A stretch of DNA of 15,057 nucleotides from an uncultured archaeon (GCA_964347045.1 CAYFXC010000030.1:930-15986); one strand, 5' to 3'. Shown: positions 1,857-15,057, numbered from the stretch's first letter. Made by a program: numbers and translations. The notes: a model not told the origin generated them from the sequence alone.

Positions 1857-1964
1857 TTTAAAAGTAAAATTCGAAGTCCTTTCCGTGGGAATACAAAGAC
1901 CAGCCTGGGAAGTATTCCAGCCTGACTTACCCTTTTAAAACCCAAAACCCTTCGAAGGAGATGA
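1857..1964 (+). promoter_or_regulatory. Candidate archaeal TATA boxes (TTTAAAAG 1857-1864; TTTTAAAA 1933-1940) and SD-like GGAGATGA (1957-1964) for actin
   Basis: AT-rich boxes in the divergent intergenic region; GGAG-containing motif 9 nt before ATG 1974. Confidence 0.4.
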
Positions 1965-1973
1965 ACTCATCCA

Positions 1974-3119
1974 ATGGCAACTGAAGAAGAAATGGTCACC
2001 GCCAAACCCTTGGTGGTTGACAACGGCACCGGCCTTAGCAAAAACGGCTACGCCGGTGAAGACCAGCCACGCAGCGTGTTCCCCACGCTCATCGGCTACC
2101 CCAAGTATCCTGCCTACATGACCGACGTCGAACACTACACCCGCGAATACTACATCGGCGAAGAAGCCCTCCAACTCCGCGGCGTCCTCAAACTCGTCTA
2201 CCCCATCGCCCACGGCCAAATCACCGACTGGCCCGCTATGGAAAAGATCTGGCACTACACCTTCTACAACGACCTCCGCATCGACCCCACCGAACACCCC
2301 ATCCTCCTCACCGAGGCCCCACTGAACCCCCGCGCCAACCGCGAAAAGATGGCCGAAATCATGTTCGAAACCTTCAACATCCCCGCCATCTACGTCGCCA
2401 TGCAAGCCGTCCTCAGCCTCTACGCCTCCGGCCGCACCACCGGCCTCGTCATCGACTCCGGCGACGGCGTCACCCACATCGTCCCCATCTACGAAGGCTT
2501 CGCCCTCACCCACGCCATCAGCCGCGTCGACTTAGCCGGCCGCGACATCACCGAATACCTCCGACGCCTCCTCCGCCAACGCGGATACAGCCTCACCACC
2601 ACTGCTGAACGCGAAATCGTCCGCGACATCAAAGAAAAACTCTGCTATGTCGCACTCGAACCCGAAAAAGAAACCAAACTCGCCGAAAAAGTCGCCGGCA
2701 TGGAAAAGAAATACATGCTCCCCGACGGCAGCACCCTCACCGTCGGTGCTGAACGATTCCAGGGACCCGAAGTGCTCTTCAATCCGGGCGCCATCGGCGT
2801 CGAAGCCCAACCCCTCGACGACGCCATCGTCGAAGCCGTCCGCAAATGTGACGTCGACCTCCGACGTGATCTCTACGCCAATATTGTTCTTTCTGGTGGA
2901 ACCACCATGTTCCCCGGCCTCAAAGAACGCCTCCGAAAGGAGATCATCGAACAGATCCCCGAAAACGTCGAAGTCAAAATCGTCGCCCCACCCGAACGGA
3001 TGTACTCCGTCTGGATCGGCGGCTCCATCCTCGCCTCTCTAAAGACGTTTCAGCGCATGTGGGTCACGAAAAAGGAATACATGGAACAAGGCGCTGGTGT
3101 TATTCATCGGTGCTTCTAA
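1974..3119 (+). CDS. Actin (Asgard lokiactin-type, eukaryote-like)
   Basis: Canonical actin motifs throughout: [129 protein letters not shown]-terminal IHRCF. Strong C-ending codon bias. Confidence 0.98.
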
Positions 3120-3170
3120 ACTAGCCGATTTTTGGGAGGCCTGTCCTCCCCTTTTTCATTTTTTTATTTT
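3060..3170 (+). repeat. Repeat R1: native actin 3' end ([19 protein letters not shown]) + terminator; master copy of the array repeat
   Basis: TGGGTCACGAAAAAGGAATACATGGAACAAGGCGCTGGTGTTATTCATCGGTGCTTCTAA, then GGGAGG-CCTGT-CCTCCC and a T-tract. Confidence 0.95.
3134..3170 (+). terminator. Hairpin + poly-T terminator of actin
   Basis: GGGAGG(3134-3139)/CCTCCC(3145-3150) stem followed by TTTTTCATTTTTTTATTTT. Confidence 0.8.
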
Positions 3171-3184
3171 TGGTTAAGTGGTGA

Positions 3185-4318
3185 TTAGATTTCTTGGAAT
3201 TGAAAAGCTCGTTGCCGAAGGATTTTGTGCTTTTTGTGTATTGGGAGTGCTGGATCGATTGGATGGTCTTTTCTGTCAACGAGTATAGCCTTTAGCACAG
3301 CTTGCTTGTCGAGTCCTTCATAGTAACTTCCAACCTTCAATTTGACACCGTCAATAAACCCACCTAGATTGAGGAATTTTTTCGCTTGATGGAGTTGTGC
3401 GGTTTCTATCATCTCGGTTGTTGTGTTGAATGAAAAACCTCGGGTTTCGAGGTATTTTTTCCATTGTACTTTTAGTAATGGATGTTTGCAACCTAATGTA
3501 AGATGTGGATAAGGGAATCGACTATCCCGTGTGAATTTTGGATTGATTGATCCTTCTGTACTCATAGCTAGCCGAATTACGAAGTTGTGAATTGTGGTTG
3601 GAATGGTTGGGTCTGATAGAAATTGCATTGATGGTTGGGGGTTTTCTTGAAGGTAATCGTCCCATGATTGTCCGAGTTTGGGTCGTGTTCGGTAGATAGG
3701 GCTGAGTTTGAGGAGTTCTTCGAGCATGAGTTTGGTGTCGTGTTTTCGGTTGTAGGTGGTGTAGTAGGCTTTGTGGCCTTGTTTGCCGGCTTTGCTCCAG
3801 TAAGGTTTGAAGAAGGTGGATGGGGGTTGGTTGTAGTGGTAATGGTTAAGGTCGGCGAAGATGGCATGGAGGGATTCAGCCTTGTTAGTGAAGGTAATGT
3901 AATGGCCACGGCCTGTGCGTTTGCCTGCACCGCCGTCGGTGATGAGCATGATGGCGATGAGGTGAGGAAGAAAGGGTTTGACGTTGGGGTGTTGGAGGAG
4001 TTGGGGGACTTCGGTGGAGAGAGGGAAGGTGGGGGCTTTAGATCCGCGGCGAAGGAGTTGGGCGTCGCGGAGGGGGCGGAGCGGTTTGTTGTATCGACGG
4101 ATGATGTTTTGGATGGTGTCTTGGGTACAGTCTTTTTCTTGGGCAAGTTGGAGGCTGCTTTTTTCTTCGCAAGTGTAGTCACAGACAATCTTGAGTTCCG
4201 TGGCGATGTCAAATTTGCGTTGGTAGGTGGCTTTAATGCCTGGTTGGGTCGTTTGGCGAAGGTGGTAAATGGGGCAGGTTGGGCATTTCTTAGGAAAGTA
4301 GGGTGGGTCGGTAGTCAT
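3185..4318 (-). CDS. Free-standing double-motif LAGLIDADG-like endonuclease with N-terminal CxxC and HTH
   Basis: Motif 1 'LIAIMLITDGG' followed by 'YITFTNKAESLHAIFADL'. Motif 2 'VIRLAMSTEGSI' followed by 'LTLGCKHPLLKVQWKKYLETRGF'. Both show the LAGLIDADG helix ending in D/E-G, then beta-strand and helix. N-terminal 'CPTC' and HTH-like 'SSLQLAQEKDCTQDTIQNIIRRY'. Recognised by eye, not by HMM. Confidence 0.65.
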   Translation of the reverse strand: MTTDPPYFPKKCPTCPIYHLRQTTQPGIKATYQRKFDIATELKIVCDYTCEEKSSLQLAQEKDCTQDTIQNIIRRYNKPLRPLRDAQLLRRGSKAPTFPLSTEVPQLLQHPNVKPFLPHLIAIMLITDGGAGKRTGRGHYITFTNKAESLHAIFADLNHYHYNQPPSTFFKPYWSKAGKQGHKAYYTTYNRKHDTKLMLEELLKLSPIYRTRPKLGQSWDDYLQENPQPSMQFLSDPTIPTTIHNFVIRLAMSTEGSINPKFTRDSRFPYPHLTLGCKHPLLKVQWKKYLETRGFSFNTTTEMIETAQLHQAKKFLNLGGFIDGVKLKVGSYYEGLDKQAVLKAILVDRKDHPIDPALPIHKKHKILRQRAFQFQEI

Positions 4319-4758
4319 GGTTCGTCACTCTGGCAGTGGTGAGGAACGGTGACGCCGTTGAGATCGCCGGTGTTTGTGAAATGGAGGATGAGACGGCATT
4401 GAAGATGGGTGTGGGTGAAGTCGGTCCAGTCGGGTCGTGGGGTGGTGATAGTGGTGTCGTCATCGAGTTGGAAGGTGCATTCGGTGTCTGTGAGGGTGGT
4501 CAAGGTGGCGAAGATGGCCTGTTCGCCGGGGATTTCGTAGAAGATGTGATCATTGTTGTTGTCGAGGAGTTCTGCACCACAGCTTTTGAGGTCTTGAATG
4601 AAGATGATTCGGTCCTTGAGGGCTTGAATCATGTCATCCCACGTGTGGCAGTCGTCGGCGAGCCATTTGAAGCGCATGATGTGATGCGTTGCCGCATCGA
4701 GTTCATTCAATTCATCTTCAGTGAGGTAGGTTGAGAGTTTTTCATAATCGATTTTCAT
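4315..4758 (-). CDS. Hypothetical protein, translationally coupled to the endonuclease gene
   Basis: 147-aa ORF. Its TGA overlaps the next ATG (ATGA, 4315-4318). Same C/A-rich codon style as its neighbour. Confidence 0.7.
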   Translation of the reverse strand: MKIDYEKLSTYLTEDELNELDAATHHIMRFKWLADDCHTWDDMIQALKDRIIFIQDLKSCGAELLDNNNDHIFYEIPGEQAIFATLTTLTDTECTFQLDDDTTITTPRPDWTDFTHTHLQCRLILHFTNTGDLNGVTVPHHCQSDEP

Positions 4759-4853
4759 GATGGTTCACTTCTGGCGGGGCGCGGGTTTTGGTTGGTTTTT
4801 ATGCGTTATGGTTCTCAGGAAAAGGCGATTAAAACCACACAGCTGCGGACTCG

Positions 4854-4905
4854 TGGGTCACGAAAAAGGAATTCATGGAGCATGGCACTGGCGGGATGGT
4901 CAATG
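4854..4905 (+). repeat. Repeat R2: degenerate actin 3' end (WVTKKEFMEHGTGG...), no terminator
   Basis: TGGGTCACGAAAAAGGAATTCATGGAGCATGGCACTGG; the first 19 nt are identical to the native actin copy. Confidence 0.8.
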
Positions 4906-5562
4906 TTAAAGGACCGCTTGGGTCCCAGGCGGCAGGGGGGACAGGTCAAGGGATTCGAACCGGTTCCCTTTCAGATCTAGCTCTTGGAGGTGTTGGCAGT
5001 GTTGGAGGGGGGTGAGGTCGAGGCTTTGAAGTTGATTGGAAGATAGATCGAGTGTTTTTAGGTGTTGGCAGTGTTGGAGGGGGGTGAGGTCGAGGGTGTG
5101 GAGCTGGTTGACATTGAGCCACAGTTCGTGGAGGTGTTGGCAGTGTTGGAGGGGGGTGAGGTCGAGGGTGTGGAGCTGGTTGTAGGAGAGGATTTGTATT
5201 CGGAGCTGGGTGCAGGTGGTCAGGGGGGTTATGTCGACGGTTTGGAGCTGGTTGTAGGCCAGGTTGAGTATTCGGAGCTGGGTGCAGGTGGCGAGGGGCG
5301 TGAGGTCGAGATGTGGGAGTCGGTTAACGTTGAGCCACAGTTCGTGGAGGTGTTGGCAGTGTTGGAGGGGGGTGAGGTCGAGGGTGTGGAGGTTGTTGAA
5401 TGCGAGACTAAGGCTTTGGAGACGGGAGCAGTGTTGGAGGGGGGTGAGGTTGATGCTCGTGAATCCGATATTTTCAATCCTGATGACGTTAACCTTTGAG
5501 TCGTATTCAGGGGTTTGCCGTTCGTCGCCTGTCACGTCGATGTAGCGGAATTGAACACCCAT
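4906..5562 (-). CDS. Leucine-rich repeat protein (24-aa LRRs)
   Basis: About 7 repeats of LxxLDLTPLxxCxxLxxLxLxxNx. Likely start ATG 5562 (MGVQFRY) after GAGGGA. The ORF-track start (5643) lies inside repeat R3. Confidence 0.9.
   Translation of the reverse strand: MGVQFRYIDVTGDERQTPEYDSKVNVIRIENIGFTSINLTPLQHCSRLQSLSLAFNNLHTLDLTPLQHCQHLHELWLNVNRLPHLDLTPLATCTQLRILNLAYNQLQTVDITPLTTCTQLRIQILSYNQLHTLDLTPLQHCQHLHELWLNVNQLHTLDLTPLQHCQHLKTLDLSSNQLQSLDLTPLQHCQHLQELDLKGNRFESLDLSPLPPGTQAVL
4930..5460. repeat. 72-bp tandem coding repeats of the LRR gene
   Basis: GGTGTTGGCAGTGTTGGAGGGGGGTGAGGTCGAG recurs at 4989, 5061, 5133 and 5349 (72-nt phase). Confidence 0.9.
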
Positions 5563-5633
5563 AGAGCATCCCTCATCGGAACCTATCACGTCTACAAGTT
5601 CAAATGTTTGCCGGTCGGGTGATCGGTCACCAG

Positions 5634-5739
5634 TGGGTGACAAAGAAAGAATACATGGAGCAGGGTGCTGGAGTTATCCACCGCTGCTTCGAGGTAGCTG
5701 AATTTTGGGAGGCCTGTCCTCCCCTTTCTCTCTTTTTTT
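5634..5739 (+). repeat. Repeat R3: actin 3' end ([19 protein letters not shown], stop replaced by GAG) + terminator
   Basis: 19/19 amino acids identical to the actin C-terminus; hairpin GGGAGG-CCTGT-CCTCCC at 5707-5723 plus T-tract. Confidence 0.95.
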
Positions 5740-5831
5740 GTGCGTGTTTTTTTGGGGTGAGGTGTTGGTGGGTGGGAATTGGAGGTGATTTTTAAATGGG
5801 GTTTGGGATTGAGTGGGTGTTGATGGGTTGA

Positions 5832-6617
5832 TTGGTGATGAAGGGTGGGGGTAAACGTCGTTGGGTGCGGATTGTTGCTCTGGTGTTGGTGGTTTTAATT
5901 GTACTGGGGGTTGGGGGATATGGGCTCTTGTGGGCGGGATTGAGTAGGTGGCCTGGGTCCTATACGTATACGGAGAGTCGGATCTTTGATTCGGTGAAAG
6001 AAGGGGCCGCGTTGAGGGAAGCGGAGCTATTCGATTACTCAGTGTTTTTGGTCGGAGACAATGAGACCTTAGCACCATATAGCTACTATCGGGGTATGGT
6101 GGAATATTCGGTGTTGCCGCTCAGCGAATTGCCGTTTCTTGCTAATGCGACACTTGCCCAGTATCGGCTGATAAACCACACGTTCAATCCCTTTCTCATA
6201 TTAGGGAAACGAACAATCACCTATATTGCAAATAGCACTTATTTTCCATCGCTGAATGTGACACTCAACGCAACGGCATTGGGTTCGAACCAGATGAGTC
6301 CTTTGGTGTTTGCCAACCCGAATGGGACCATTGCGGAAACATGGACTAGTGGCGCGTGGCGTGGAGGCTACTGGAACGGAACTGATTATGTGAGTTTTGA
6401 GTATGTGCGAAATAGAGGCTTTGTCGGACCGCAGTTCCTGTTACAAAATCACACTGATGTCTATTTTATCGATATGTTGTTCACAATCCTTCGTGATGGC
6501 GCAGGATCGCGTTCATTCTTTGGTGATATGTTTCGGTATATTCAACGTGTGATTGTGGATGCAACGGGACGAGTTCTCTTTGTATCATCAGCTCAAGATT
6601 ATCTAGCTTGGATTTGA
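5832..6617 (+). CDS. N-terminally anchored membrane/secreted glycoprotein, unknown function
   Basis: KRR + hydrophobic helix (WVRIVALVLVVLIVLGVGGYGLLW); 9 N-x-S/T sequons in the remainder. Exact start uncertain (5832-5838). Confidence 0.75.
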   Translation: MVMKGGGKRRWVRIVALVLVVLIVLGVGGYGLLWAGLSRWPGSYTYTESRIFDSVKEGAALREAELFDYSVFLVGDNETLAPYSYYRGMVEYSVLPLSELPFLANATLAQYRLINHTFNPFLILGKRTITYIANSTYFPSLNVTLNATALGSNQMSPLVFANPNGTIAETWTSGAWRGGYWNGTDYVSFEYVRNRGFVGPQFLLQNHTDVYFIDMLFTILRDGAGSRSFFGDMFRYIQRVIVDATGRVLFVSSAQDYLAWI

Positions 6618-6687
6618 ATCGTGGGCACGCAATTGCTGTTGGATGTAAACGAAAAATAATGCCGTTTTCGAAGCTAAGATTAGGCAA

Positions 6688-6795
6688 ATGTGTGTGACGA
6701 AGAAAGAATACATGGAGCAGGGCGCTGGAGTTATCCACCGCTGCTTCGAGGTAGCTGATTTTTTGGGAGGCTTGGTTTCCTCTATCTCGTTTTTC
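6688..6795 (+). repeat. Repeat R4: actin 3' end ([20 protein letters not shown], stop replaced by GAG) + eroded hairpin
   Basis: ATGTGTGTGACGAAGAAAGAATACATGGAGCAGGGCGCTGGAGTTATCCACCGCTGCTTCGAGGTAGCTGA...GGGAGG at 6765. Confidence 0.93.
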
Positions 6796-6882
6796 TAAGT
6801 TGTGAGAAGTTTGTGTGGCTGGATTGAAATGGAATGGCTTTTGAGGTTAGGCGGGGTAATGGTTGGAAAATTTGACTAGGAG

Positions 6883-7680
6883 TTGGTGGTTGATTTGGAA
6901 GGTGAAGGTTTGAAGGAATTGCCTGAGGTGGGGCATTATGTGGATGTGAACGGGCTCCATATGTATTATGAGGATCAGGGTCAGGGGGTTCCGTTGATTT
7001 TAGTGCATGGTGGGTTGCTGACGGGGAGTCTTGGGTGGGGGGATCTCAGGAAGCGATTTGCCCAGCAGTTTCGTGTGATTGTTCCCGATTGTCGGGGCTG
7101 TGGTCGAACGGATAATCCCCAGGGCAGTATGGATTATCGGGTCATGGCCGATGATATCGTTGCATTAGCCCAGTCCTTGGAGTTGGTGAATCCGATTATC
7201 GGTGGATGGAGTGATGGCGGACAAGTTACATTGGAAATTGGAATCCGGTATCCGGATGTTGCGAAAGCCCTCGTGGTGGGGGCCGCACAGCACGAATTGT
7301 CACCAAAGACAAAGGAGGGCCTGTTGTCAGTTCGTGATTGGCTTAAATCCGAACCAGAACTTACAGCGTCGTTGAGAGCTGCGCATAGCCATGTCTACGG
7401 AGCCGAGTACTGGGAAACATATGTCAACAAGCAGATTCAGATGTGGACTAACCCATCGAACTATCCACAGGACGATATTAAGCGAATCAAGGTGCCCACG
7501 CTCCTCATCGTGGGGGATCAAGATGAAGCAGTCCCCCTCGAAACCCAAATCGAAATGCTTGAGCTGATGCCACAGGCAGAATTAGCCATCATCCCCAATA
7601 TGACGCACATGAATTATGTGAACGAACGCAGTGCAATCTTCTTTGCCGTTGTGATGGACTTCCTTAAACGGATCTCCTGA
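6883..7680 (+). CDS. Alpha/beta-fold hydrolase
   Basis: Oxyanion HGG, 'PDCRGCGRT', nucleophile elbow GWSDGG, 'PTLLIVGDQDEAVP' and catalytic His in 'PNMTH'. Start uncertain by a few codons. Confidence 0.92.
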   Translation: MVVDLEGEGLKELPEVGHYVDVNGLHMYYEDQGQGVPLILVHGGLLTGSLGWGDLRKRFAQQFRVIVPDCRGCGRTDNPQGSMDYRVMADDIVALAQSLELVNPIIGGWSDGGQVTLEIGIRYPDVAKALVVGAAQHELSPKTKEGLLSVRDWLKSEPELTASLRAAHSHVYGAEYWETYVNKQIQMWTNPSNYPQDDIKRIKVPTLLIVGDQDEAVPLETQIEMLELMPQAELAIIPNMTHMNYVNERSAIFFAVVMDFLKRIS

Positions 7681-7691
7681 GAAAAAAGATC

Positions 7692-7726
7692 TTTGGGAGG
7701 CCTGGTCTCCCTTTTCTCTCTTTTTT
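7692..7726 (+). terminator. Repeat R5: hairpin/poly-T half of the actin repeat only
   Basis: TTTGGGAGGCCTGGTCTCCCTTTTCTCTCTTTTTT, near-identical to the R1/R3 terminators. Confidence 0.8.
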
Positions 7727-7792
7727 ATGGGTGGGGTGGGTGGAAGGTGGGTTTTTAGGGTGTGAGGTGGGTTGGTGAGGGGTGAGGGATGA

Positions 7793-8791
7793 TTGTTGGT
7801 TTTGGATTTGGTTGATAAATGGTTGTTAATTGAGTTAGGGGCGAACTGTCGGCTGTCGTATCAGAAGTTGGCGCGTCATTTTGGGTTGACGGTCAATGGG
7901 ATTAAGAAACGGGTGGAAAAGTTGCGGGAGATGGGGGTGATTTTAGGGTCTCTTTTGGTCTTGAATCGGGGGATCGTGTTTGGTTCTCCCCGACATTATT
8001 GGTTCATGTCGCAGTTGTGGGTCGATGAATCGAGAGACGATGAACAGCATTTCATTGAACAGGCAAAGTTTCCTGAATTGGGTTTAAGTTATTTGAAAAC
8101 AACTCGGAACACCATTCTTCTCTCCGGGCGTGTATACGATCTTGCCCGGTATCTTGAACTAGTGAAATTCATTCAACATCTTGAAGGGGTGCATAAATCA
8201 GAAACTGAAGTGTTGAGAGGCTTGTTTGTTCCAGGGCTACTCCGCAATGCACGACAAATCCCGCAGCTCACAATCAAAAGGACCTGTGTTGAGCACGATT
8301 TCACAAAAGATCAACTGTTGTTACTCCACTATCTTAAGGATGACCCACGAATGCAAGTAACAGAACTTGCGGCTAAGACGAAATTTTCGCCAAAGCGGGT
8401 GCGTAAAATCTTAAATATCTTCCACCAAACTCGGTGTGTAGTGTTTACTATCGTGCGGAATTTGAGTGCAGCGAAGCACACCGGTGCATTGGTAAGGATC
8501 ACAATAGATGAAACTCAAACTACCCCGGAGGATTTTGCTCGCTGGATAGTTGAAGCCTATCCGTTTGAATTTCGAATGATTTTTGCGGTGGTCGATAAAC
8601 CCAATCAACTGTGGCTTTCGATTTCTGCCCCACATATTCAAACCATTGATGCGATAGCCGAAACTATCCGTTCTACTCCTTTCACCCAACACACAGACGC
8701 CCTTGTCCTTTTTGGAGCAGTCTTTGGTGACAAAACCAGTCCTTACTATGATCGCCCTCTCGAAACGCTCCTCAAAGAAGCTGGTCTGTAA
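7793..8791 (+). CDS. Tandem (double HTH) Lrp/AsnC-family transcriptional regulator
   Basis: 'LDLVDKWLLIELGANCRLSYQKLARHFGLTVNGIKKRVEKL' and a second HTH 'LLLLHYLKDDPRMQVTELAAKTKFSPKRVRKIL'. Confidence 0.88.
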   Translation: MLVLDLVDKWLLIELGANCRLSYQKLARHFGLTVNGIKKRVEKLREMGVILGSLLVLNRGIVFGSPRHYWFMSQLWVDESRDDEQHFIEQAKFPELGLSYLKTTRNTILLSGRVYDLARYLELVKFIQHLEGVHKSETEVLRGLFVPGLLRNARQIPQLTIKRTCVEHDFTKDQLLLLHYLKDDPRMQVTELAAKTKFSPKRVRKILNIFHQTRCVVFTIVRNLSAAKHTGALVRITIDETQTTPEDFARWIVEAYPFEFRMIFAVVDKPNQLWLSISAPHIQTIDAIAETIRSTPFTQHTDALVLFGAVFGDKTSPYYDRPLETLLKEAGL

Positions 8792-8811
8792 TTAGCACTT
8801 GAATAATGCCC

Positions 8812-8905
8812 GAAAAGAAGGTATACATGGAGCAGGGTGCTGGCGTGATCCTTCGCTGTGTCTAAAATCCTTGGATTTCTGGGAGGTTCCTGCTCCCATT
8901 CTTTT
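8812..8905 (+). repeat. Repeat R6: actin 3' end ([17 protein letters not shown]) + hairpin
   Basis: TACATGGAGCAGGGTGCTGGCGTGATCCTTCGCTGTGTCTAA (TAA 8863-8865); GGGAG/CTCCC stem at 8881-8897. Confidence 0.9.
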
Positions 8906-8944
8906 GTTGGTGCTGAGTGTGGCTTGATTGAGGAAAGTTGGGTG

Positions 8945-9652
8945 TTAGAATTCGGTGATGGGTTTGAGGTATTGGGCCATGCCGAGGGTGAATTGGGCTT
9001 CTGCGGGTGACACTGCTCGTCCGTCAAAGTGTGTGCGTTCGACAAATTCGGCGAAGTGGGTTACCAGGTCTTCAGGGTCGTCGTAGGCGGCGATTTTGTC
9101 GAGGGTGTCTAGGCCGGCGTCGTAGAAGAGGCGGGCGCGTTTTTGTTTCAGTCCTGGGATGCGGGCTAGATTGCTGAGTTTTACTAGTTCTAGGATGGTT
9201 TCTTCTGGTAGGTTGGTTTCTTCGGAGAGTTTCTCTCGTTGGGCTTTGGTTGTGGTGCTGGCGAGGAGTTGGGCGGCGGTTCGAATATCATGGGCCGAGA
9301 GGGTTTTTGCGACTTGGGGATTGACGCCGGTGAAATCTTTGAGGTTCAGTGCCTCTAGCGAGATGATTCCTAAAATTTCGTTAGCGGCGTGATAGAGATC
9401 TTGGTCTGCTGTGAATCCGTAATAGGATTTTAGCGCGTAGAAGTAGCGGTTGATCCTTGGGCGTCGAAATTGCGGGTCCAGCCAGGTGAAAAATGCGTGG
9501 AGGTCCTCGGGTTGTTGGGTGTCAACACTGTGTTGACGATACTTTTGAAGATAGTCAAAATATTCTTTGGATAGTCGAATAAATTGAGTCATCGTATTGG
9601 CGGGGGTTTTTTGGTCCTGTAAATAAGTTCGAAACCCTTTTTCATCAAACAT
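8945..9652 (-). CDS. DUF4332-like (HhH) protein with N-terminal integrase SAM-like/core-binding-like helical domain
   Basis: C-terminal 'LKDFTGVNP..AKTL....IRTAAQLL.....REKLSEETNLPEETILELVKLSNLARIPGL..KRARLFYDAGLDTL' is typical of DUF4332. N-terminal 'FRTYL...NT...F..YL...EDL.AF...L....INRY..ALKSYY.F' resembles the tyrosine-recombinase N-terminal domain. Likely start ATG 9652 after GGAGTGA; the track start 9766 is inside R7. Confidence 0.75.
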   Translation of the reverse strand: MFDEKGFRTYLQDQKTPANTMTQFIRLSKEYFDYLQKYRQHSVDTQQPEDLHAFFTWLDPQFRRPRINRYFYALKSYYGFTADQDLYHAANEILGIISLEALNLKDFTGVNPQVAKTLSAHDIRTAAQLLASTTTKAQREKLSEETNLPEETILELVKLSNLARIPGLKQKRARLFYDAGLDTLDKIAAYDDPEDLVTHFAEFVERTHFDGRAVSPAEAQFTLGMAQYLKPITEF

Positions 9653-9743
9653 CGTGTTCACTCCACTTAGGAAACAAGCTGATATTCGTTTCTTATGTTT
9701 CTTGAGTATAAATTGTCGCGTTTTTGAACTTTCACTATCAAAT

Positions 9744-9850
9744 TGGGGTATGAAAAAACAATACATGGCGCAGGGTGCTGGCGTGATCTACCGCTGCTTC
9801 TAAACGGGTCTTCACATTTTGGGAGGCTTGCCTCCCTTTTTTTCTTTTTT
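9744..9850 (+). repeat. Repeat R7: actin 3' end (WGMKKQYMAQGAGVIYRCF*) + terminator
   Basis: TGG 9744 to TAA 9801-9803, same 57-nt spacing as actin; GGGAGGC-TT-GCCTCCC at 9821-9836 plus T-tract. Confidence 0.93.
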
Positions 9851-9942
9851 GGTGGTTTCTGGTTGAGTTGATCTAAGGTGTGGATTCCGAGGAGTATTTA
9901 CGTGATGGTGAGCATATAGGAGGGTGGTTGGGTGGTTTGGGA

Positions 9943-10992
9943 ATGCCAGTGGATCTTACAGACAAACGGATTATCATGTTGCTAATGGAGAATCCACGCA
10001 CATCCTATCGGGCCTTGGGACGAGCACTGGGATTATCGGTGACGGCCGTACGCAACCGGGTGTTGAAACTTGAAGCCAGCAACGTCATTCGCCAATATGT
10101 GCTCTATCCAAGCTATGCCATGCTGGGGGCGTCGTTATGTACAGCCATTCTGAGCATCGCCAACCCGCCTCCCAGTGACGAGTTCCGAGAGCGCCTTGGA
10201 GCTCATCCGATGATTGAATGGGTAGATTTCCTTGCTGATGGGAATGTGATGTGTTATGCCACCTATATTGGTTCCAAGGGATTAGACGAACTCACCTTAT
10301 TCTTGCACGAGCTGGAAGCGGTCAATGACATTGAATTTCATACCCTGCTGGTTGAAGAAGGCAAGAAATTAACTCTTACTTCGATGCATCTTCAGGTCTT
10401 GCGGTGCCTTCGAAAGGATGTTCGCATGCCCGTCAGCGAAATTGCCCAACTCACTCGACTCACTCAACGGCGCGTTCGAAAACTCTTAGCCGATCTGATA
10501 GGCACCACGGGATCTTTTAGCGGAGAATGGTTTCATGAAAAAGGATGCGGAGATTATCGCAGCGCCCAACAATGTTTTCATCCCCGTGTCAATTGTGATG
10601 TGGCCGAAGGTGGTTCGACACGGTTTCTCGCCCGGATTTCATTTCGTGGCGGCGCTGAACAGCGACGAAAGATTGTGGAGGTCTTAAAACGTGAATATCC
10701 TCTCGAATACTGGTTTAGTCGCGCGAGTGCTTCCGCTCCCGTTCTGTTTTCCATGTTCTTTGTAGATGTCGCTAATTACTCGCCACAAATCATCCAGCGC
10801 ATCAAAGAGCTGGATGGCGTTGAGTCCGTGCGGCCCATTGTCAATTATGCTCACCACTACTACCCGGGCTTAATTGACCGGTTCTGGGAGCAATTATTCA
10901 GCCAATCTAACCCTCATGCCAAAACACAGTGTGGTTGGATTCAGTTCGAATGTGCACACCGTTTCGAAGACACAGGGAGGTTCCGAAGTTGA
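9943..10992 (+). CDS. Tandem Lrp/AsnC-family transcriptional regulator
   Basis: 'VDLTDKRIIMLLMENPRTSYRALGRALGLSVTAVRNRVLKL' and a second HTH 'LQVLRCLRKDVRMPVSEIAQLTRLTQRRVRKLL'. Start taken at ATG 9943 by alignment with the paralogues (track start 9880). Confidence 0.88.
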   Translation: MPVDLTDKRIIMLLMENPRTSYRALGRALGLSVTAVRNRVLKLEASNVIRQYVLYPSYAMLGASLCTAILSIANPPPSDEFRERLGAHPMIEWVDFLADGNVMCYATYIGSKGLDELTLFLHELEAVNDIEFHTLLVEEGKKLTLTSMHLQVLRCLRKDVRMPVSEIAQLTRLTQRRVRKLLADLIGTTGSFSGEWFHEKGCGDYRSAQQCFHPRVNCDVAEGGSTRFLARISFRGGAEQRRKIVEVLKREYPLEYWFSRASASAPVLFSMFFVDVANYSPQIIQRIKELDGVESVRPIVNYAHHYYPGLIDRFWEQLFSQSNPHAKTQCGWIQFECAHRFEDTGRFRS

Positions 10993-11135
10993 CATTCTGT
11001 AACCTCGTCTTATAAAGCAAGGTACTTTTGTAAATCTGTGACTTCACGTGGGCTAATATGTTACCGTCTGCCCTCTTGCAGCTGGTGGGGGTTGTCTTCA
11101 CAATTGGAGGGATACCCCCTTGGAGGAACTCGAAA

Positions 11136-11957
11136 ATGGTTTCTATGAAAACGAAATGGACAATTTCATTGTCCACAATTGTAGCCCTGAGCCTGCTATT
11201 TTTAGGCCTGTGTTGGGGGTTCCCCTCAGCTGGGGCAATGCAAACGCCTGTCTGGTCGGATAACTTCAATGACGGCAACCTCGATGGATGGACCGTCTTT
11301 GAAGGGTCCTTCTCGGCAACTACTCTTCGAATGGAATCTGGTACAGATCTCTGGAATTTCGCATCCCATCCAAGTACGGTGACGACAGGTGAATGGCGAT
11401 TTACAGTCTGCGTTGATGCAATTGCGGGTCCCGCTGTGGCTTTTATGGCCACAACTACCTCTGGAGTCGGTCTTGCCTGTCCAAGTACTTGCTACCTCAT
11501 TTTCCTTAGTCCTCATGGTGGCTGGATTCGTTTGTATAAACTTGAATCTGGAAGCCAGAGTATCTTGGGGGGATATGATATCGATATTGTCTTGGGTACT
11601 GTCTTTGAGGTCATTGTGACACGGGATTCCAATGGACAGTTTAATGTGTGGATCGATGGCACCCATCGGATTTCAGCTGTATCAACCAACATCGAAAGTT
11701 CATCTTATTTTGTCGTTAGGTTCCATGAAGGAGGATACATCGACAACATCCGGGTCTATGACGAAATACTAACCACTACGGGTACTGAAACAGAAACTAC
11801 CACGGACACCACAACCACAGAAGACGGAACATTCACGGGATGGCAGCTTCCGCCACTGCCCGTTGAAGCGATTGGCATAGGCATTGGTGTCGTAGCCATC
11901 ATCATCCTCATCGTTGGGTTGGTTCTGCTTCTCCGACCCAAGAAAATAGAATCGTAA
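11136..11957 (+). CDS. Cell-surface protein: signal peptide, beta-sandwich (ConA/LamG-like) domain, Thr-rich linker, C-terminal TM anchor
   Basis: Signal peptide KTKW+hydrophobic; 'VWSDNFNDGNLDGW...GEWRF...VIVTRDSNGQFNVWIDG...IDNIRVYD'; TTTGTETETTTDTTTTE; TM followed by RPKK. GGAGG at 11122 precedes ATG 11136; TTATAAAG at 11010. Confidence 0.8.
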   Translation: MVSMKTKWTISLSTIVALSLLFLGLCWGFPSAGAMQTPVWSDNFNDGNLDGWTVFEGSFSATTLRMESGTDLWNFASHPSTVTTGEWRFTVCVDAIAGPAVAFMATTTSGVGLACPSTCYLIFLSPHGGWIRLYKLESGSQSILGGYDIDIVLGTVFEVIVTRDSNGQFNVWIDGTHRISAVSTNIESSSYFVVRFHEGGYIDNIRVYDEILTTTGTETETTTDTTTTEDGTFTGWQLPPLPVEAIGIGIGVVAIIILIVGLVLLLRPKKIES

Positions 11958-11985
11958 GGCTATCAGACAGCATGGAGTCTTATCT

Positions 11986-12053
11986 GGGGAGGCCTGGTCT
12001 CTTATCCATCCGTTGTCAGGGGAAGCTTGGCCTCCCCTTCGCCCCATTTTTTT
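11986..12053 (+). repeat. Repeat remnant R8: two eroded copies of the terminator hairpin
   Basis: GGGGAGGCCTGGTCTC (11986-12001, matches R5) and GGGGAAGCTTGGCCTCCCC (12019-12037) followed by TTTTTT. Confidence 0.6.
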
Positions 12054-12102
12054 GGCTAGCAGAAAATGTGAATGTAGACAAATGAGGGAAGGACTTGAAG
12101 AA

Positions 12103-12531
12103 ATGAAGTATTCAGACTTTGTACAAGCATACAAGGACATTCGAACCAAAGTACAGGCTTCATCTGTTGAGGCTGAGGACGAAGGGTTAGTCCTGATCCA
12201 TGAAACAGAGTGGGCTCAAGTACTTCTGGTTCATACCCCACAGAAGGCCGATACTATCAAGCTTATCGTCGAAGTGTCCTTGCCAAGTTGGGTTCATGAG
12301 TTGAGTTTGCCGGGAACTGCCAGCGAACAGTCCTCAGAGTATACACCACAATTGCAGAAGGTGTTAAAGGAGCAAGTGCGTCATCTCGAATACCTCCTCA
12401 CGTTAAGTCATGCAGGATTTCAACTAGCGATAATCGCGGAAGAAGGGTTCTGGAGTGCGTCGACACTCTTACAAGACGCTCCATCTAGGGATCTATTCCT
12501 TCTCCTCGCTCCTCCGGAAGTCACCCTCTAG
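12103..12531 (+). CDS. Hypothetical protein
   Basis: Open frame with protein-like composition. ATG 12103 or 12082 preferred over the track start 12013, which lies in the repeat remnant. Confidence 0.7.
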   Translation: MKYSDFVQAYKDIRTKVQASSVEAEDEGLVLIHETEWAQVLLVHTPQKADTIKLIVEVSLPSWVHELSLPGTASEQSSEYTPQLQKVLKEQVRHLEYLLTLSHAGFQLAIIAEEGFWSASTLLQDAPSRDLFLLLAPPEVTL

Positions 12532-12564
12532 CTTTCATTCTTTTTAGTTGAGCAAAACTAGGTA

Positions 12565-12672
12565 TGGGTGACAAAGAAAGAATACATGGAGCAGGGTGCT
12601 GGCGTGATCCATCGCTGCTTCTAAGCGGCCTTCACCTATTGGGAGGCGTGCCTCCCTTTTTTTCATTTTTTT
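12565..12672 (+). repeat. Repeat R9: intact actin 3' end ([19 protein letters not shown]) + terminator
   Basis: 19/19 aa identical with TAA at 12622-12624; GGGAGGC-GT-GCCTCCC at 12641-12656 plus T-tract. Confidence 0.96.
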
Positions 12673-12731
12673 GTGTTGATTGAGTGATTTTGATGGGGTT
12701 TGCCCGTGGGGTATTTACGGGTGGGTGATTA

Positions 12732-13727
12732 TTGGTAGGGGTGGAGGGTGTTGTTGTGACAGTGGATGATGTTGATCGACGGTTGGGTTTGGAGTTGATG
12801 GGGAATGCACGGTTGTCGTATACGGTGTTGGCGCGGGATTTGGGGTTGTCGGTGAATGCGGTGAAGAAGCGGGTGGCAAAGCTCATGGAGCGTGGGATTT
12901 TGGAGGAGTTTGGGGTGTACGTTAATCCGGAGTTGTGTTATGAGGGAGTGCAAATCAATGAGGTGTTTGGGTGGGTAGCGACGGACGGGGCCGAAGAGGA
13001 GGAAACGTTCATTCATCAGGTTGGTGGGTTTCCGTCAATTCATTCTGTCTCAAAGACTACCCGCGATACCTACATGTTTAATGCAATGGTTCCGGGCTTT
13101 GAGGGGATTTCTAGCATGGGTCGATTTCTTGAAAAACTTCCGGGTGTGACTCACCTTGAAATGGATCCAGTGTTGTATTTGGGGTGGCCCCCTGGGGTGG
13201 TGGGTCGGAAGTTTTCCACTCCACGTAGAGTATACGATTATACTTTTTCGAAGCCTGATTTGTTGGTTTTGCGATGTTTGAAGGAGGATCCGAGGATGTC
13301 GATTTCAAGGATTGCTAAACAGACGGGATTAACACCACGGCGTGTTCGGAAAATTCTTGACATGTTTCATGAAACCAGGGTCGTGGTGGTGTACGCGGAT
13401 ATTAATGTCGAGGCGGCTGGGTTTATGAGGGCTGTCCTGCGTGTGAAAATAGATTTGGCTGTTCAAAGTCCTAAGGCGTTCCGGAATTGGGCATATCAGC
13501 TACATCCGTTTGGATGGCTGGGCACCTATTCGTGTGTTAACCGTCCTTCAACGCTTCTTCACTATATAGGAGCAGAAAATATAATCAGTATTGAAGAATT
13601 GGCGAAAACGGTTAAGGCTTCTCCCGCTGTACAGGCTGTTGAAACCATTATACTCTACCGTGAACACATATTTCATGGGAAATGGCACCAACGCGTTGAT
13701 GAACTGCTCAGAGACGCTGGGCTTTAA
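12732..13727 (+). CDS. Tandem Lrp/AsnC-family transcriptional regulator (closest paralogue of 7793-8791)
   Basis: 'VDDVDRRLGLELMGNARLSYTVLARDLGLSVNAVKKRVAKL' and a second HTH 'LLVLRCLKEDPRMSISRIAKQTGLTPRRVRKIL'; ends LLRDAGL* versus LLKEAGL*. True start probably a GTG some codons downstream. Confidence 0.88.
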   Translation: MVGVEGVVVTVDDVDRRLGLELMGNARLSYTVLARDLGLSVNAVKKRVAKLMERGILEEFGVYVNPELCYEGVQINEVFGWVATDGAEEEETFIHQVGGFPSIHSVSKTTRDTYMFNAMVPGFEGISSMGRFLEKLPGVTHLEMDPVLYLGWPPGVVGRKFSTPRRVYDYTFSKPDLLVLRCLKEDPRMSISRIAKQTGLTPRRVRKILDMFHETRVVVVYADINVEAAGFMRAVLRVKIDLAVQSPKAFRNWAYQLHPFGWLGTYSCVNRPSTLLHYIGAENIISIEELAKTVKASPAVQAVETIILYREHIFHGKWHQRVDELLRDAGL

Positions 13728-13752
13728 CTTTCAGAAATTGTCGATTCGTACT

Positions 13753-13832
13753 CAGGGTACGAGCGTTATTCACCGGTGCTTCTAAAATGGCTGTTTCCCT
13801 TTGGGAGGCTTGCCTCCCTTCTCTCTTTTTTT
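13753..13832 (+). repeat. Repeat R10: 5'-truncated actin 3' end (QGTSVIHRCF*) + terminator
   Basis: CAGGGTACGAGCGTTATTCACCGGTGCTTCTAA (TAA 13783-13785); GGGAGGC-TT-GCCTCCC at 13803-13818 plus T-tract. Confidence 0.9.
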
Positions 13833-13960
13833 CAGGGGATTTTTGTTGTGCGGTTTGGTGTGTTCGCTTTGTGGGTTCAGTATGTATTTTTATAAGCGTA
13901 CATACAACTATGGGTGGTCGTTGAAGAATCTGCGATCGAATTTGGAGGGATTTACTTAGA

Positions 13961-14572
13961 ATGGCTTCAACTAAGTTGTTAGGCAAAACTATAGTGGTTT
14001 CGTTGGCATTGGTTTGTGTGCTTACGATTGCGATGATGCCGGTGGCTTCAGCCAGTTATGGTGATACACGGCGATTTCTTCGCCCGAGCCCCTTTGGTGT
14101 GGGACAAGCGAAACTCTTTGACGTATACATGGACGCGGCTTGGAATCCACCTGGTCGCATTGTTAGCTTGTTTACTGTTGGTATACCTTGGGGACAAAAT
14201 TGGCTAAACGTGTTGGATTCAAATGAGGCTCTTATGATTGCGCCTGTTGGAATCTTCGTTGAACCACCGGATTATACTGACACAAAATCCGCAAGAGAGT
14301 TTTACAGTAATTTCAGGTATGTCGTCACGATTGATGGGGAAGAACTTCCCACCGAAATAACGCCCCTGCGCCCATGCACTTTCGTGGATCGTGAAACCGG
14401 CGAAAAATATCGCTGGTGGGAATGGCGCTGTGGTGCCACCTTTAAAGCCGGTGAATTCGAAGAATACCTTGGTGGACTTGGAATATACACGATTCGCTTC
14501 CGATGGTTCCTAGGCGAGGAGTGTCTTTTCGATAGTGATTGGTTTGGCGTCTATCAGTTCCAACTAGTATGA
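13961..14572 (+). CDS. Secreted hypothetical protein
   Basis: Signal peptide (K..K + hydrophobic + ASA). TATA-like TTTATAAG at 13889 and GGAGGGA at 13944 upstream. Confidence 0.8.
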   Translation: MASTKLLGKTIVVSLALVCVLTIAMMPVASASYGDTRRFLRPSPFGVGQAKLFDVYMDAAWNPPGRIVSLFTVGIPWGQNWLNVLDSNEALMIAPVGIFVEPPDYTDTKSAREFYSNFRYVVTIDGEELPTEITPLRPCTFVDRETGEKYRWWEWRCGATFKAGEFEEYLGGLGIYTIRFRWFLGEECLFDSDWFGVYQFQLV

Positions 14573-14575
14573 AAT

Positions 14576-14632
14576 CTGTGAAATTCATCGAACCAAATGG
14601 GAGGCTTGTCCTCCCCTTTCTCTCTTTTTTTT
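14576..14632 (+). repeat. Repeat R11: terminator plus trace of actin codons
   Basis: GTGAAATTCATCG (compare actin GTGTTATTCATCG); GGGAGG-CTTGT-CCTCCC at 14599-14615, then CTTTCTCTCTTTTTTTT as in R3. Confidence 0.8.
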
Positions 14633-14826
14633 GGCTTCTCTAATATTTTGTAATCTCTCTATTTGAAGCTGTACCCGAAATCGTATTGAAGTCGTGGATG
14701 TATAAGATATGGGAATGCATGGTTGTAACTTGGTTGCGGGTGCTTCTTGTGCTGAAAAATCATCTGCTCGATAAATTTCCCCTTTCTAAACAGATACACA
14801 AGTTCCCCAAGCAAGATGCAGTTGGT

Positions 14827-15057
14827 ATGAAACTAGGCGTAGATGCGGACGTATTTAATTTGGAAATTACTCGTCAACTCAGAAATAATTGCAGAGTGAC
14901 CTATCGTGAATTGGCACGCCAAACCGGACTTTCTACAAAAGCTGTCCAGAAACGTGTGAAAAAACTCATTGATACTCAAAGAATCGGTGAAATTAGGATT
15001 GAATTAAGCCACGCTATGCTTAACTCGGAGATGGTCTGGGCTGAGATTTGGACAGAT
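14827..15057 (+). CDS. Lrp/AsnC-family regulator, N-terminal part (runs off window; not in ORF track)
   Basis: Manual translation: MKLGVDADVFNLEITRQLRNNCRVTYRELARQTGLSTKAVQKRVKKLIDTQRIGEIRIELSHAMLNSEMVWAEIWTD. Confidence 0.85.
   Translation, partial: MKLGVDADVFNLEITRQLRNNCRVTYRELARQTGLSTKAVQKRVKKLIDTQRIGEIRIELSHAMLNSEMVWAEIWTD

Follow-up and report, generated by a model that had tools for sequence, protein, structure and literature searches.

Introduction

Homing endonucleases are usually viewed as small selfish genes with local effects, and those of the LAGLIDADG class cut targets of 18-22 bp in alleles that lack the endonuclease gene. The closest described counterparts of the locus reported here are the mobile open reading frames (mORFs) of fungal mitochondria, known with a carried duplication of the host C-terminus from atp6 of Allomyces macrogynus and from atp6, atp9, cox2 and nad3 of Glomus (PMC3630166, where a 1994 study of the Allomyces mORF is cited), and also from cob and atp6 of Endoconidiophora (PMC6279837). 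In these fungal elements most differences between the inserted C-terminus and the native one that it displaced are synonymous (PMC3630166). In this work we analyze a stretch of 15,057 nucleotides (nt) (GCA_964347045.1 CAYFXC010000030.1:930-15986, hereafter the window) whose 3′ limit is a contig end, from the 2.58 Mb genome of an Asgard (Hermodarchaeia) archaeon, in which copies of the 3′ end of the actin gene, here called tails, alternate with cargo genes behind a gene for a predicted LAGLIDADG homing endonuclease. We regard it as reasonably probable that the tails are scars of repeated homing by this free-standing gene behind actin, followed by recombination between tails. Throughout, G000 denotes the source genome, G004, G005, G008, G011, G012, G013, G016 and G037 its relatives, C a contig and L a locus of a relative; the window is thus G000:C30:930-15986.

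The locus shares with mORFs an endonuclease reading frame (LAGLIDADG, or GIY-YIG in some mORFs) behind the host gene, a native end displaced downstream of that frame, end copies that differ mainly synonymously, and displaced ends that decay. In mORFs the host gene ends in an inserted foreign C-terminus, for which a horizontal origin is inferred, and in the reading proposed here actin would do likewise. The differences lie in the setting, an archaeal chromosome and the actin gene, in the endonuclease gene, which occupies the opposite strand and is not fused in frame, in the terminator that is carried along, and in scale: where an mORF leaves one displaced end, about 17 tails extend here over some 30 kb, interleaved with genes that do not encode endonucleases.

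Free-standing homing endonucleases of T-even phages perform ‘intronless homing’, as reported for SegF (PMC155333, as cited in PMC13096335; reviewed in PMC2988022), and SegB drives a recombination-dependent segmental amplification that builds tandem repeats (PMC13096335). As in those phages, an intergenic endonuclease gene would here cut a nearby site in genomes without it and spread with flanking markers by repair, but the T-even enzymes are of the GIY-YIG or HNH type and carry no replacement gene end, and SegB repeats one segment and not different cargo. Zeng, Bonocora and Shub reportedly described in 2009 a collaborative homing in which free-standing F-CphI acts together with an intron of cyanophage psbA that has no reading frame of its own (as cited in PMC6279837). 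That nuclease is directed at the place in the adjoining gene where a small intron inserts, and genome G011 combines a 30-nt insertion in actin, of bulge-helix-bulge (BHB)-like shape, with a LAGLIDADG gene in the first slot; the candidate intron, unlike that of psbA, is known from a single metagenome-assembled genome (MAG) and by its predicted fold, and G000 has no intron.

Integrons, including archaeal ones (PMC9668308), similarly consist mostly of single-gene cassettes in either orientation at a recurring site, with variable content and order and one anchored end. In the array described here, by contrast, there is no IntI-type integrase, attC hairpin structure or attI, and what recurs between cassettes is part of a host gene; the cassette in first position is conserved and therefore not the newest cargo, unlike in integrons. 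Integrative elements duplicate the 3′ ends of tRNA or protein genes, and tandem islands form at such sites. A casposon with sequence-specific integration has also been described (PMC8464041). Common to these elements and the proposed reading is that the incoming element restores the 3′ end of its target gene and old copies mark earlier events, but integrative elements carry an integrase or casposase and usually span many kilobases, and neither enzyme was found in the ~29-kb array.

A literature search returned no paper linking actin, LAGLIDADG proteins and Asgard archaea, and none describing such arrays. The homing unit itself is mORF-like, so that the view of the initial annotation that no system of this kind had been described does not extend to it; that view does hold for the stacking of tails and non-endonuclease cargo over 30 kb of an archaeal chromosome, which has no described counterpart. 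If the homing explanation is true, one homing endonuclease built a 30-kb, species-variable island of accessory genes in a cellular chromosome and has repeatedly rewritten the end of actin, a gene characteristic of the archaea most closely related to eukaryotes. Horizontal gene flow and genome diversification in Asgard archaea would then need no integrase, transposase or virus, the 3′ third of actin would have a history apart from the rest of the gene, with relevance to actin phylogenies, and the stack of tails would constitute a rare fossil record of successive homing events.

The repeat unit and its distribution

The repeat unit, of about 110 bp, comprises the last 19 codons of actin, a short spacer, a GGGAGGCCTGTCCTCCC hairpin of the GGGAGG/CCTCCC type and a T-run. 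A unit profile built from six copies was used to search the window and the genome with nhmmer. It locates 10 sites in the window, all on the + strand: six full-length copies (91-109 bits, E-values 1e-26 to 1e-32), two partial ones and two reduced to hairpin and T-run. The same-orientation unit noted between genes in the initial annotation is thereby confirmed, except for a copy placed at 11986, which is merely a hairpin-like element at 12020-12057; since a similar hairpin follows a paralog of the preceding gene on C45, it could be that gene's terminator. The elements of the window on which the argument rests are as follows.

1974-3119, + strand: actin gene (381 amino acids), anchor of the array (Pfam Actin, 449 bits)
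3057-3166, + strand: native tail unit, full length; last 19 codons at 3060-3119, then spacer, hairpin at 3134-3150 and T-run to about 3166
3185-4318, - strand: free-standing homing-endonuclease gene (377 amino acids, predicted fold), convergent with actin
4315-4758, - strand: open reading frame (ORF) of 147 amino acids, no family, overlapping the endonuclease start by 4 nt; ortholog in the same place in G013
4853-4897, + strand: displaced tail (nhmmer), first 45 nt only (about 15 codons), decaying (Y>F, Q>H, A>T); codon class that of the native tail
5632-5738, + strand: displaced tail, 19 codons intact, stop codon lost; 11 synonymous and 0 non-synonymous differences from the native tail
6688-6798, + strand: displaced tail, 9 synonymous and 1 non-synonymous differences from the native tail; 94% identical to the 5632 copy
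7687-7729, + strand: tail remnant, hairpin and T-run only; the orthologous G008 cassette ends in a full tail
8804-8914, + strand: displaced tail, decaying; 9 synonymous and 6 non-synonymous differences
9741-9850, + strand: displaced tail, decaying; 7 synonymous and 5 non-synonymous differences
12563-12675, + strand: displaced tail, intact including the stop codon; 11 synonymous differences, 0 non-synonymous
13753-13832, + strand: displaced tail without its 5′ part; retains the last ~10 codons, hairpin and T-run
14595-14632, + strand: remnant, hairpin and T-run

Genome-wide, the profile finds seven further copies on C13:41143-56659 (- strand) and none outside C30 and C13 at E < 0.1. Because the ends of C30 and C13 hold two parts of one gene for a double winged helix-turn-helix (wHTH) protein, with about 28 codons missing between them, C13 is probably the continuation of the C30 array, which would then number about 17 tails over some 29-30 kb. 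The unit is accordingly tied to the actin locus and not scattered, and the array probably runs on past the window, both as the initial annotation had anticipated. At its far end, on C13, the array precedes an arginine-deiminase-like gene and a Na/Pi cotransporter gene. Scans for tRNA genes and Rfam families found none in the window.

The hairpin motif GGGAGG-n-CCTCCC has 10 sites in the 2.58 Mb genome, eight of them within the array stretches of C30 and C13. It pairs a Shine-Dalgarno-like GGAGG arm with an anti-Shine-Dalgarno-like CCTCC arm, and a matching hairpin with T-run lies 3′ of two membrane-protein genes outside the array (G000:C12:9286 and G000:C45:2237).

A LAGLIDADG gene in the first slot

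The gene at 3185-4318 had been overlooked as an endonuclease gene in the initial annotation. Its protein family supplies the first gene after the native tail in G000, G004, G005, G008, G013 and two further assemblies; G000 has a single copy, the G005 copy contains one internal stop, and the first slot of G011 holds a divergent LAGLIDADG gene, a distant paralog. Together with the tail at 4853-4897, the native tail (3060-3166) places the endonuclease gene between two copies of the actin end, a layout common to six species. The 147-amino-acid ORF that overlaps its start is probably co-transcribed with it, judging from their arrangement.

The two-domain LAGLIDADG fold consists of two alpha-beta-beta-alpha-beta-beta-alpha domains packed through their two LAGLIDADG helices, and in homing endonucleases of this monomeric class an acidic catalytic residue stands at the C-terminal end of each such helix. 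The 377-amino-acid protein has only 14 close homologs among 5.8 billion proteins. It has no significant match in Pfam, PHROGs or the sequences of the PDB, nor does a profile of 12 members in Pfam or PDB sequences; a relative that scores 94 bits against this profile reaches Pfam LAGLIDADG_3 at 24.3 bits (cut-off 22.5). An N-terminal region of 100 residues with four invariant cysteines and a helix-turn-helix (HTH) precedes the two LAGLIDADG domains, marked in the alignment by the motifs LLTDGxAG and MSTEGSI. In the AlphaFold (AF2) model (predicted local distance difference test score, pLDDT, 84.8) both motifs end helices and beta strands come next. Helices 114-128 and 241-255 end in D128-G129 and E255-G256, respectively, and D128 and E255, the catalytic acidic positions, do not vary among 12 homologs. 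LAGLIDADG proteins account for all 50 of the best structural matches (Z 9.4-13.6, root-mean-square deviation 2.6-4.8 Å over 152-223 residues, within ~100-377), among them I-Tsp061I, I-DmoI, the TliVMA intein nuclease, I-OnuI and WhiA (Foldseek probability 0.94-1.0). We infer that the product is a free-standing LAGLIDADG homing endonuclease, with predicted activity.

Displaced tails, junctions and stumps

Relative to the native sequence, the tails at 5632 and 12563 have 11 changes apiece, every one of them synonymous, where 19% of possible changes are of that kind (P ~1e-8). This excess argues that displaced tails were once functional actin ends, and the copies at 5632, 12563 and 6688 appear to have diverged as working ends and to have been set aside recently; the other displaced tails carry replacements, stops or truncations.

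Across 45 displaced tails of nine species, homology begins at the position equivalent to 3058-3060, at the Met361/Trp362 codons, and the left flanks are unrelated. The common start combined with unrelated flanks points to junctions that formed independently at one site. The native tails of G000 and G008 are identical at all but 5 of 60 positions, and four of the five lie no more than 15 nt past the boundary, a distribution that would be compatible, if weakly, with selection for variants that escape cutting.

In relatives, stumps of 70-195 nt from the 3′ end of the endonuclease gene follow immediately on displaced tails and are placed as the intact gene is relative to the native tail (L044 4015-4179, E 7e-31; L056 5892-6086, E 9e-38; also L043 and contig C130 of G005). 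One tail with its stump in G004 closely matches the native tail and gene end of G000, and the cargo gene next to it follows a stumpless tail in G012.

Related endonucleases at other genes

Duplicated gene ends also flank homologs of the enzyme at other host genes. A 479-amino-acid homolog in G037, of another Asgard family, matches Pfam LAGLIDADG_3 and HTH_3 and is convergent with the 3-hydroxyacyl-CoA dehydrogenase gene of a beta-oxidation cluster; it lies between two copies of the last ~20 codons of the dehydrogenase, which share 83% nucleotide identity with the amino acids kept (L059, G037:C175; features at 24-87, 270-1709 and 1867-3174). On a hydrocarbon-seep metagenome contig (L074; features at 198-392, 601-1755 and 1786-1980), homolog P0021 is flanked on both sides by the first ~65 codons of a radical-SAM gene, with a stop in the outer copy, so that the duplicated end is there the 5′ and not the 3′ one. 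Distant relatives of the endonuclease are found between cdc6/orc1 and an Endo_dU gene (L075 4001-5119) and directly upstream of, and overlapping, thrS (L076 807-1847); no gene-end duplication was detected at these two loci.

Actin divergence and insertions

In a comparison of four species, the number of silent differences per 90 nt of actin doubles over the final 360 nt. Actin of G000 differs from that of G013 at 17 positions in nt 67-606 and at 80 in nt 607-1146 (P 8e-12), the 5′ half being near-identical and the 3′ half ~15% different. Such a pattern is as would be expected of co-conversion tracts running upstream from a homing site at the 3′ end, and because actin is mosaic between species of the genus, whole-gene actin trees could mix histories. 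The comparison gave no clean step in identity at the boundary of actin body and tail, just a broader rise over the last 360-540 nt.

The actin gene of G011 (L047; G011:C32, about 39820-39950, oriented 330-455) contains two frame-breaking insertions, one of 30 nt with in-frame stops exactly at the Met361/Trp362 boundary and one of 28 nt about 90 nt upstream. Both fold into helix, 3-nt bulge, 4-bp helix, 3-nt bulge and helix, the BHB-like shape of archaeal tRNA-type introns; the intron-bearing sequence did not turn up in the 20 other genomes searched. An intron at the target site would be another means of protecting actin in this genome.

The bin of the source genome holds a second actin 5′ region with its upstream genes (G000:C24:1-1379), 84% identical in nucleotides, which ends at a contig end; the actin fragment shows 100% amino-acid identity over residues 1-132 and probably belongs to a co-binned close relative. 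In many relatives, too, contigs break within actin.

Arrays in related genomes

A DNA search for tails covering 40 relatives revealed copies in nine of the 14 genomes of the same genus, with 15 tails in 20 kb in G012, 10 in 11.8 kb in G008 and 11 in G013; five genus members, whose genomes are 74-83% complete, gave no tail match. In the sister-genus genome G016, the only one examined, the native tail stands alone, with neither endonuclease gene nor array. Two genes that lie ~2 kb 3′ of actin in G016 are found ~8 kb beyond the array in G011, which argues that the array was inserted into an older neighbourhood.

Clustering of the ORFs from all arrays shows that cargo families are shared between species while their order and neighbours differ. 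This is the outcome the initial annotation had proposed to look for in related MAGs, with cassette content and order variable and repeat boundaries constant. Recurrent cargo comprises glyoxalase, nitroreductase, methyltransferases, alpha/beta hydrolase, a metallo-beta-lactamase-fold protein, a cation diffusion facilitator (CDF) transporter, a three-gene module and many double-wHTH regulators. G013 has no equivalent of two cassettes present in G008, and its hybrid tail shows a crossover between spacer and T-run, near the hairpin. The spacer between stop codon and hairpin falls into discrete types that assort with neighbours.

Recombinases were sought as well. A tyrosine recombinase (PF00589) is absent from the array contigs of G000, G004, G008, G011, G012 and G013, with matches on other contigs only; in G012 and G013, which have large arrays, the sole such enzyme is a conserved housekeeping protein of XerA type (314-315 amino acids) on another contig. 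Pfam scans of the array ORFs of the G000 window and C13, ~29 kb, revealed no integrase or recombinase. The attC sites of integrons are imperfect palindromes whose single strands fold into long hairpins; folding of the unit gave no attC-like structure, a 6-bp hairpin being all that is consistent across four units (z -0.9 to -1.7). The actin 3′ end, put forward in the initial annotation as a reusable site for serial capture, does qualify as a reused insertion point; the integron or attachment-site mechanism suggested with it is not supported, the array contigs having no integrase and the unit no attC-like fold. Two candidates from the array were discarded. The DUF4332 protein (8945-9766), considered as an integrase, has a weak match to the N-terminal SAM-like domain and no catalytic domain, and the module of double-wHTH, 299- and 172-amino-acid proteins was rejected as recombination machinery because all three families have paralogs outside any array.

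Proposed mechanism and alternative explanations

In the homing explanation, the enzyme's cut in an actin allele would fall between the Met361 and Trp362 codons (window 3059/3060) or close by, and repair would copy from a donor chromosome in which a recoded version of the last 19 codons with its terminator comes next and, after these, the endonuclease gene in opposite orientation. With a new tail supplied, actin would stay intact, and the resident tail, its start set precisely by the cut, would be displaced downstream. Repeated events with tails from different lineages would stack the old tails, and old endonuclease genes would decay to stumps or vanish. Two steps are the least supported: the entry of cargo, for which we conjecture that flanking donor DNA is copied during one-ended repair and joined at the cut, and the movement, deletion and duplication of cassettes through homologous recombination between ~110-bp tails, of which the G013/G008 hybrid tail and the 94% identity of the 5632 and 6688 tails may be signs.

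Several observations weigh against this explanation. Decay does not progress monotonically with distance from actin, the tail at 4853 being badly truncated and that at 12563 pristine, and protein and DNA profiles detect no endonuclease stump behind the displaced tails of the window or C13. Cargo genes in the window begin 30-100 nt past the T-run, so that the right edge of the unit too is joined to many sequences, and such joins are not readily explained by simple decay of an endonuclease gene. Between species, the tails on either side of shared cargo show about the same conservation, and the linkage test gave identities of 0.69 and 0.65 against a background of 0.60, barely above it. Five of seven more distant relatives of the enzyme have no flanking duplication, two of those contigs being too short to judge. 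Finally, because WhiA, a LAGLIDADG protein that does not cut, is the top structural match, the predicted endonuclease activity draws on the conserved residues and not on the fold.

Assembly could in principle have chained co-assembled strains that share the conserved actin end into a false array, a suspicion fed by the second actin 5′ fragment in the bin and by the contigs of relatives that break in actin. A displaced tail requires reads that join cargo to tail without the actin body, and single unitigs from the source run bridge cargo, tail and cargo in just this way at 3057, 4853, 9741 and 13753; in a relative, one independent contig of 69 kb contains actin, the endonuclease gene and ten tails; nine species have arrays, which also appear in contigs of 69 and 212 kb, and the tail copies differ among themselves. 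These unitigs and the 69-kb contig establish that the array is not an artefact, and we consider chaining extremely improbable. In Logan contigs of the probable source sample we found no joints, circles or empty sites, a result with no bearing either way since such contigs drop rare forms. An integron-like process is quite unlikely, although several features speak for it. A recombinase acting in trans, XerA-type or unknown, would exchange circular cassettes at the tail unit, perhaps at GGGAGGC-nnn-GCCTCCC, and the endonuclease gene would be another cassette; consistent with this, both unit edges are sharp and joined to many cargo sequences, cassette order is shuffled among species, the crossover of the two-cassette difference between G008 and G013 falls near the hairpin, spacer types are discrete, and the hairpin sequence is conserved without covariation, as expected of a protein-binding site. 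Set against these features are the lack of any recombinase in or beside the arrays of six genomes, with just the housekeeping XerA-type enzyme elsewhere in G012 and G013, the want of an attC-like fold, and an inverted repeat (arms of 6-7 nt, spacer of 3-5 nt) far shorter than the core sites of Xer proteins and integrases. The endonuclease's constant first slot, the stumps and the duplications around related endonucleases would also go unexplained.

An origin by recombination alone, from one ancient duplication of the actin end followed by homologous recombination with the DNA of relatives and with an inactive or bystander endonuclease, is unlikely in our view. Direct repeats of 110 bp are adequate substrates for it, the similarity of the 5632 and 6688 tails fits recombination-mediated insertion or conversion, and the uneven decay along the array and the inactive WhiA among the best fold matches speak in its favour; but it offers no way of creating joints between one fixed nucleotide and unrelated left flanks, nor of supplying tails functional in other lineages without an event on the actin side, and the catalytic residues are invariant and the gene intact in most species. 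The homing explanation itself includes recombination between tails. A bolder version of that explanation, possible but doubtful, would make endonuclease and tail unit a gene-capture platform, a nuclease-driven counterpart of the integron, in which breaks at tails are repaired by copying or joining foreign DNA, accessory genes are continually taken up, kept and rearranged behind an essential, highly conserved and eukaryote-like gene, and the endonuclease would have been retained, or domesticated, because the island is useful.

Cargo genes of the window

Intervals between tails hold one to three genes in either orientation, which bears out the initial annotation in this respect; its description of the cargo as functionally unrelated is partly true, four cargo genes being paralogous double winged-helix regulators. 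The cargo genes are listed below.

4906-5643, - strand: leucine-rich-repeat protein with 72-nt tandem repeats (Pfam scan)
5832-6617, + strand: 261-amino-acid protein, no family (cluster 12; also in the C13 and G013 arrays)
6883-7680, + strand: alpha/beta hydrolase (cluster 20; also in the G008 array)
7793-8791, + strand: double winged-helix regulator (paralog family, cluster 0)
8945-9766, - strand: DUF4332 / helix-hairpin-helix protein (cluster 32; also in G012)
9880-12531, + strand: three-gene module of double-wHTH (9880-10992), 299-amino-acid (11058-11957) and 172-amino-acid (12013-12531) proteins
12732-13727, + strand: double winged-helix regulator
13961-14572, + strand: 203-amino-acid protein, no family
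14686-15057, + strand: double-wHTH gene truncated at the contig end, N-terminal part; the matching C-terminal part opens C13 (reverse strand)

The leucine-rich-repeat gene contains at least eight tandem repeats of 72 nt (24 codons) that are 60-75% identical (window 4934-5509). The three-gene module is also found in the arrays of C13, G013 and G012, with paralogs in other parts of the genome. PADLOC, applied to ten cargo proteins, returned only weak HTH matches. Double winged-helix paralogs of ~330 amino acids are widespread in the genome (C2, C6, C8, C13, C14, C18, C23 and C27) and over-represented in the array, and genes of this family often adjoin small membrane-protein genes.

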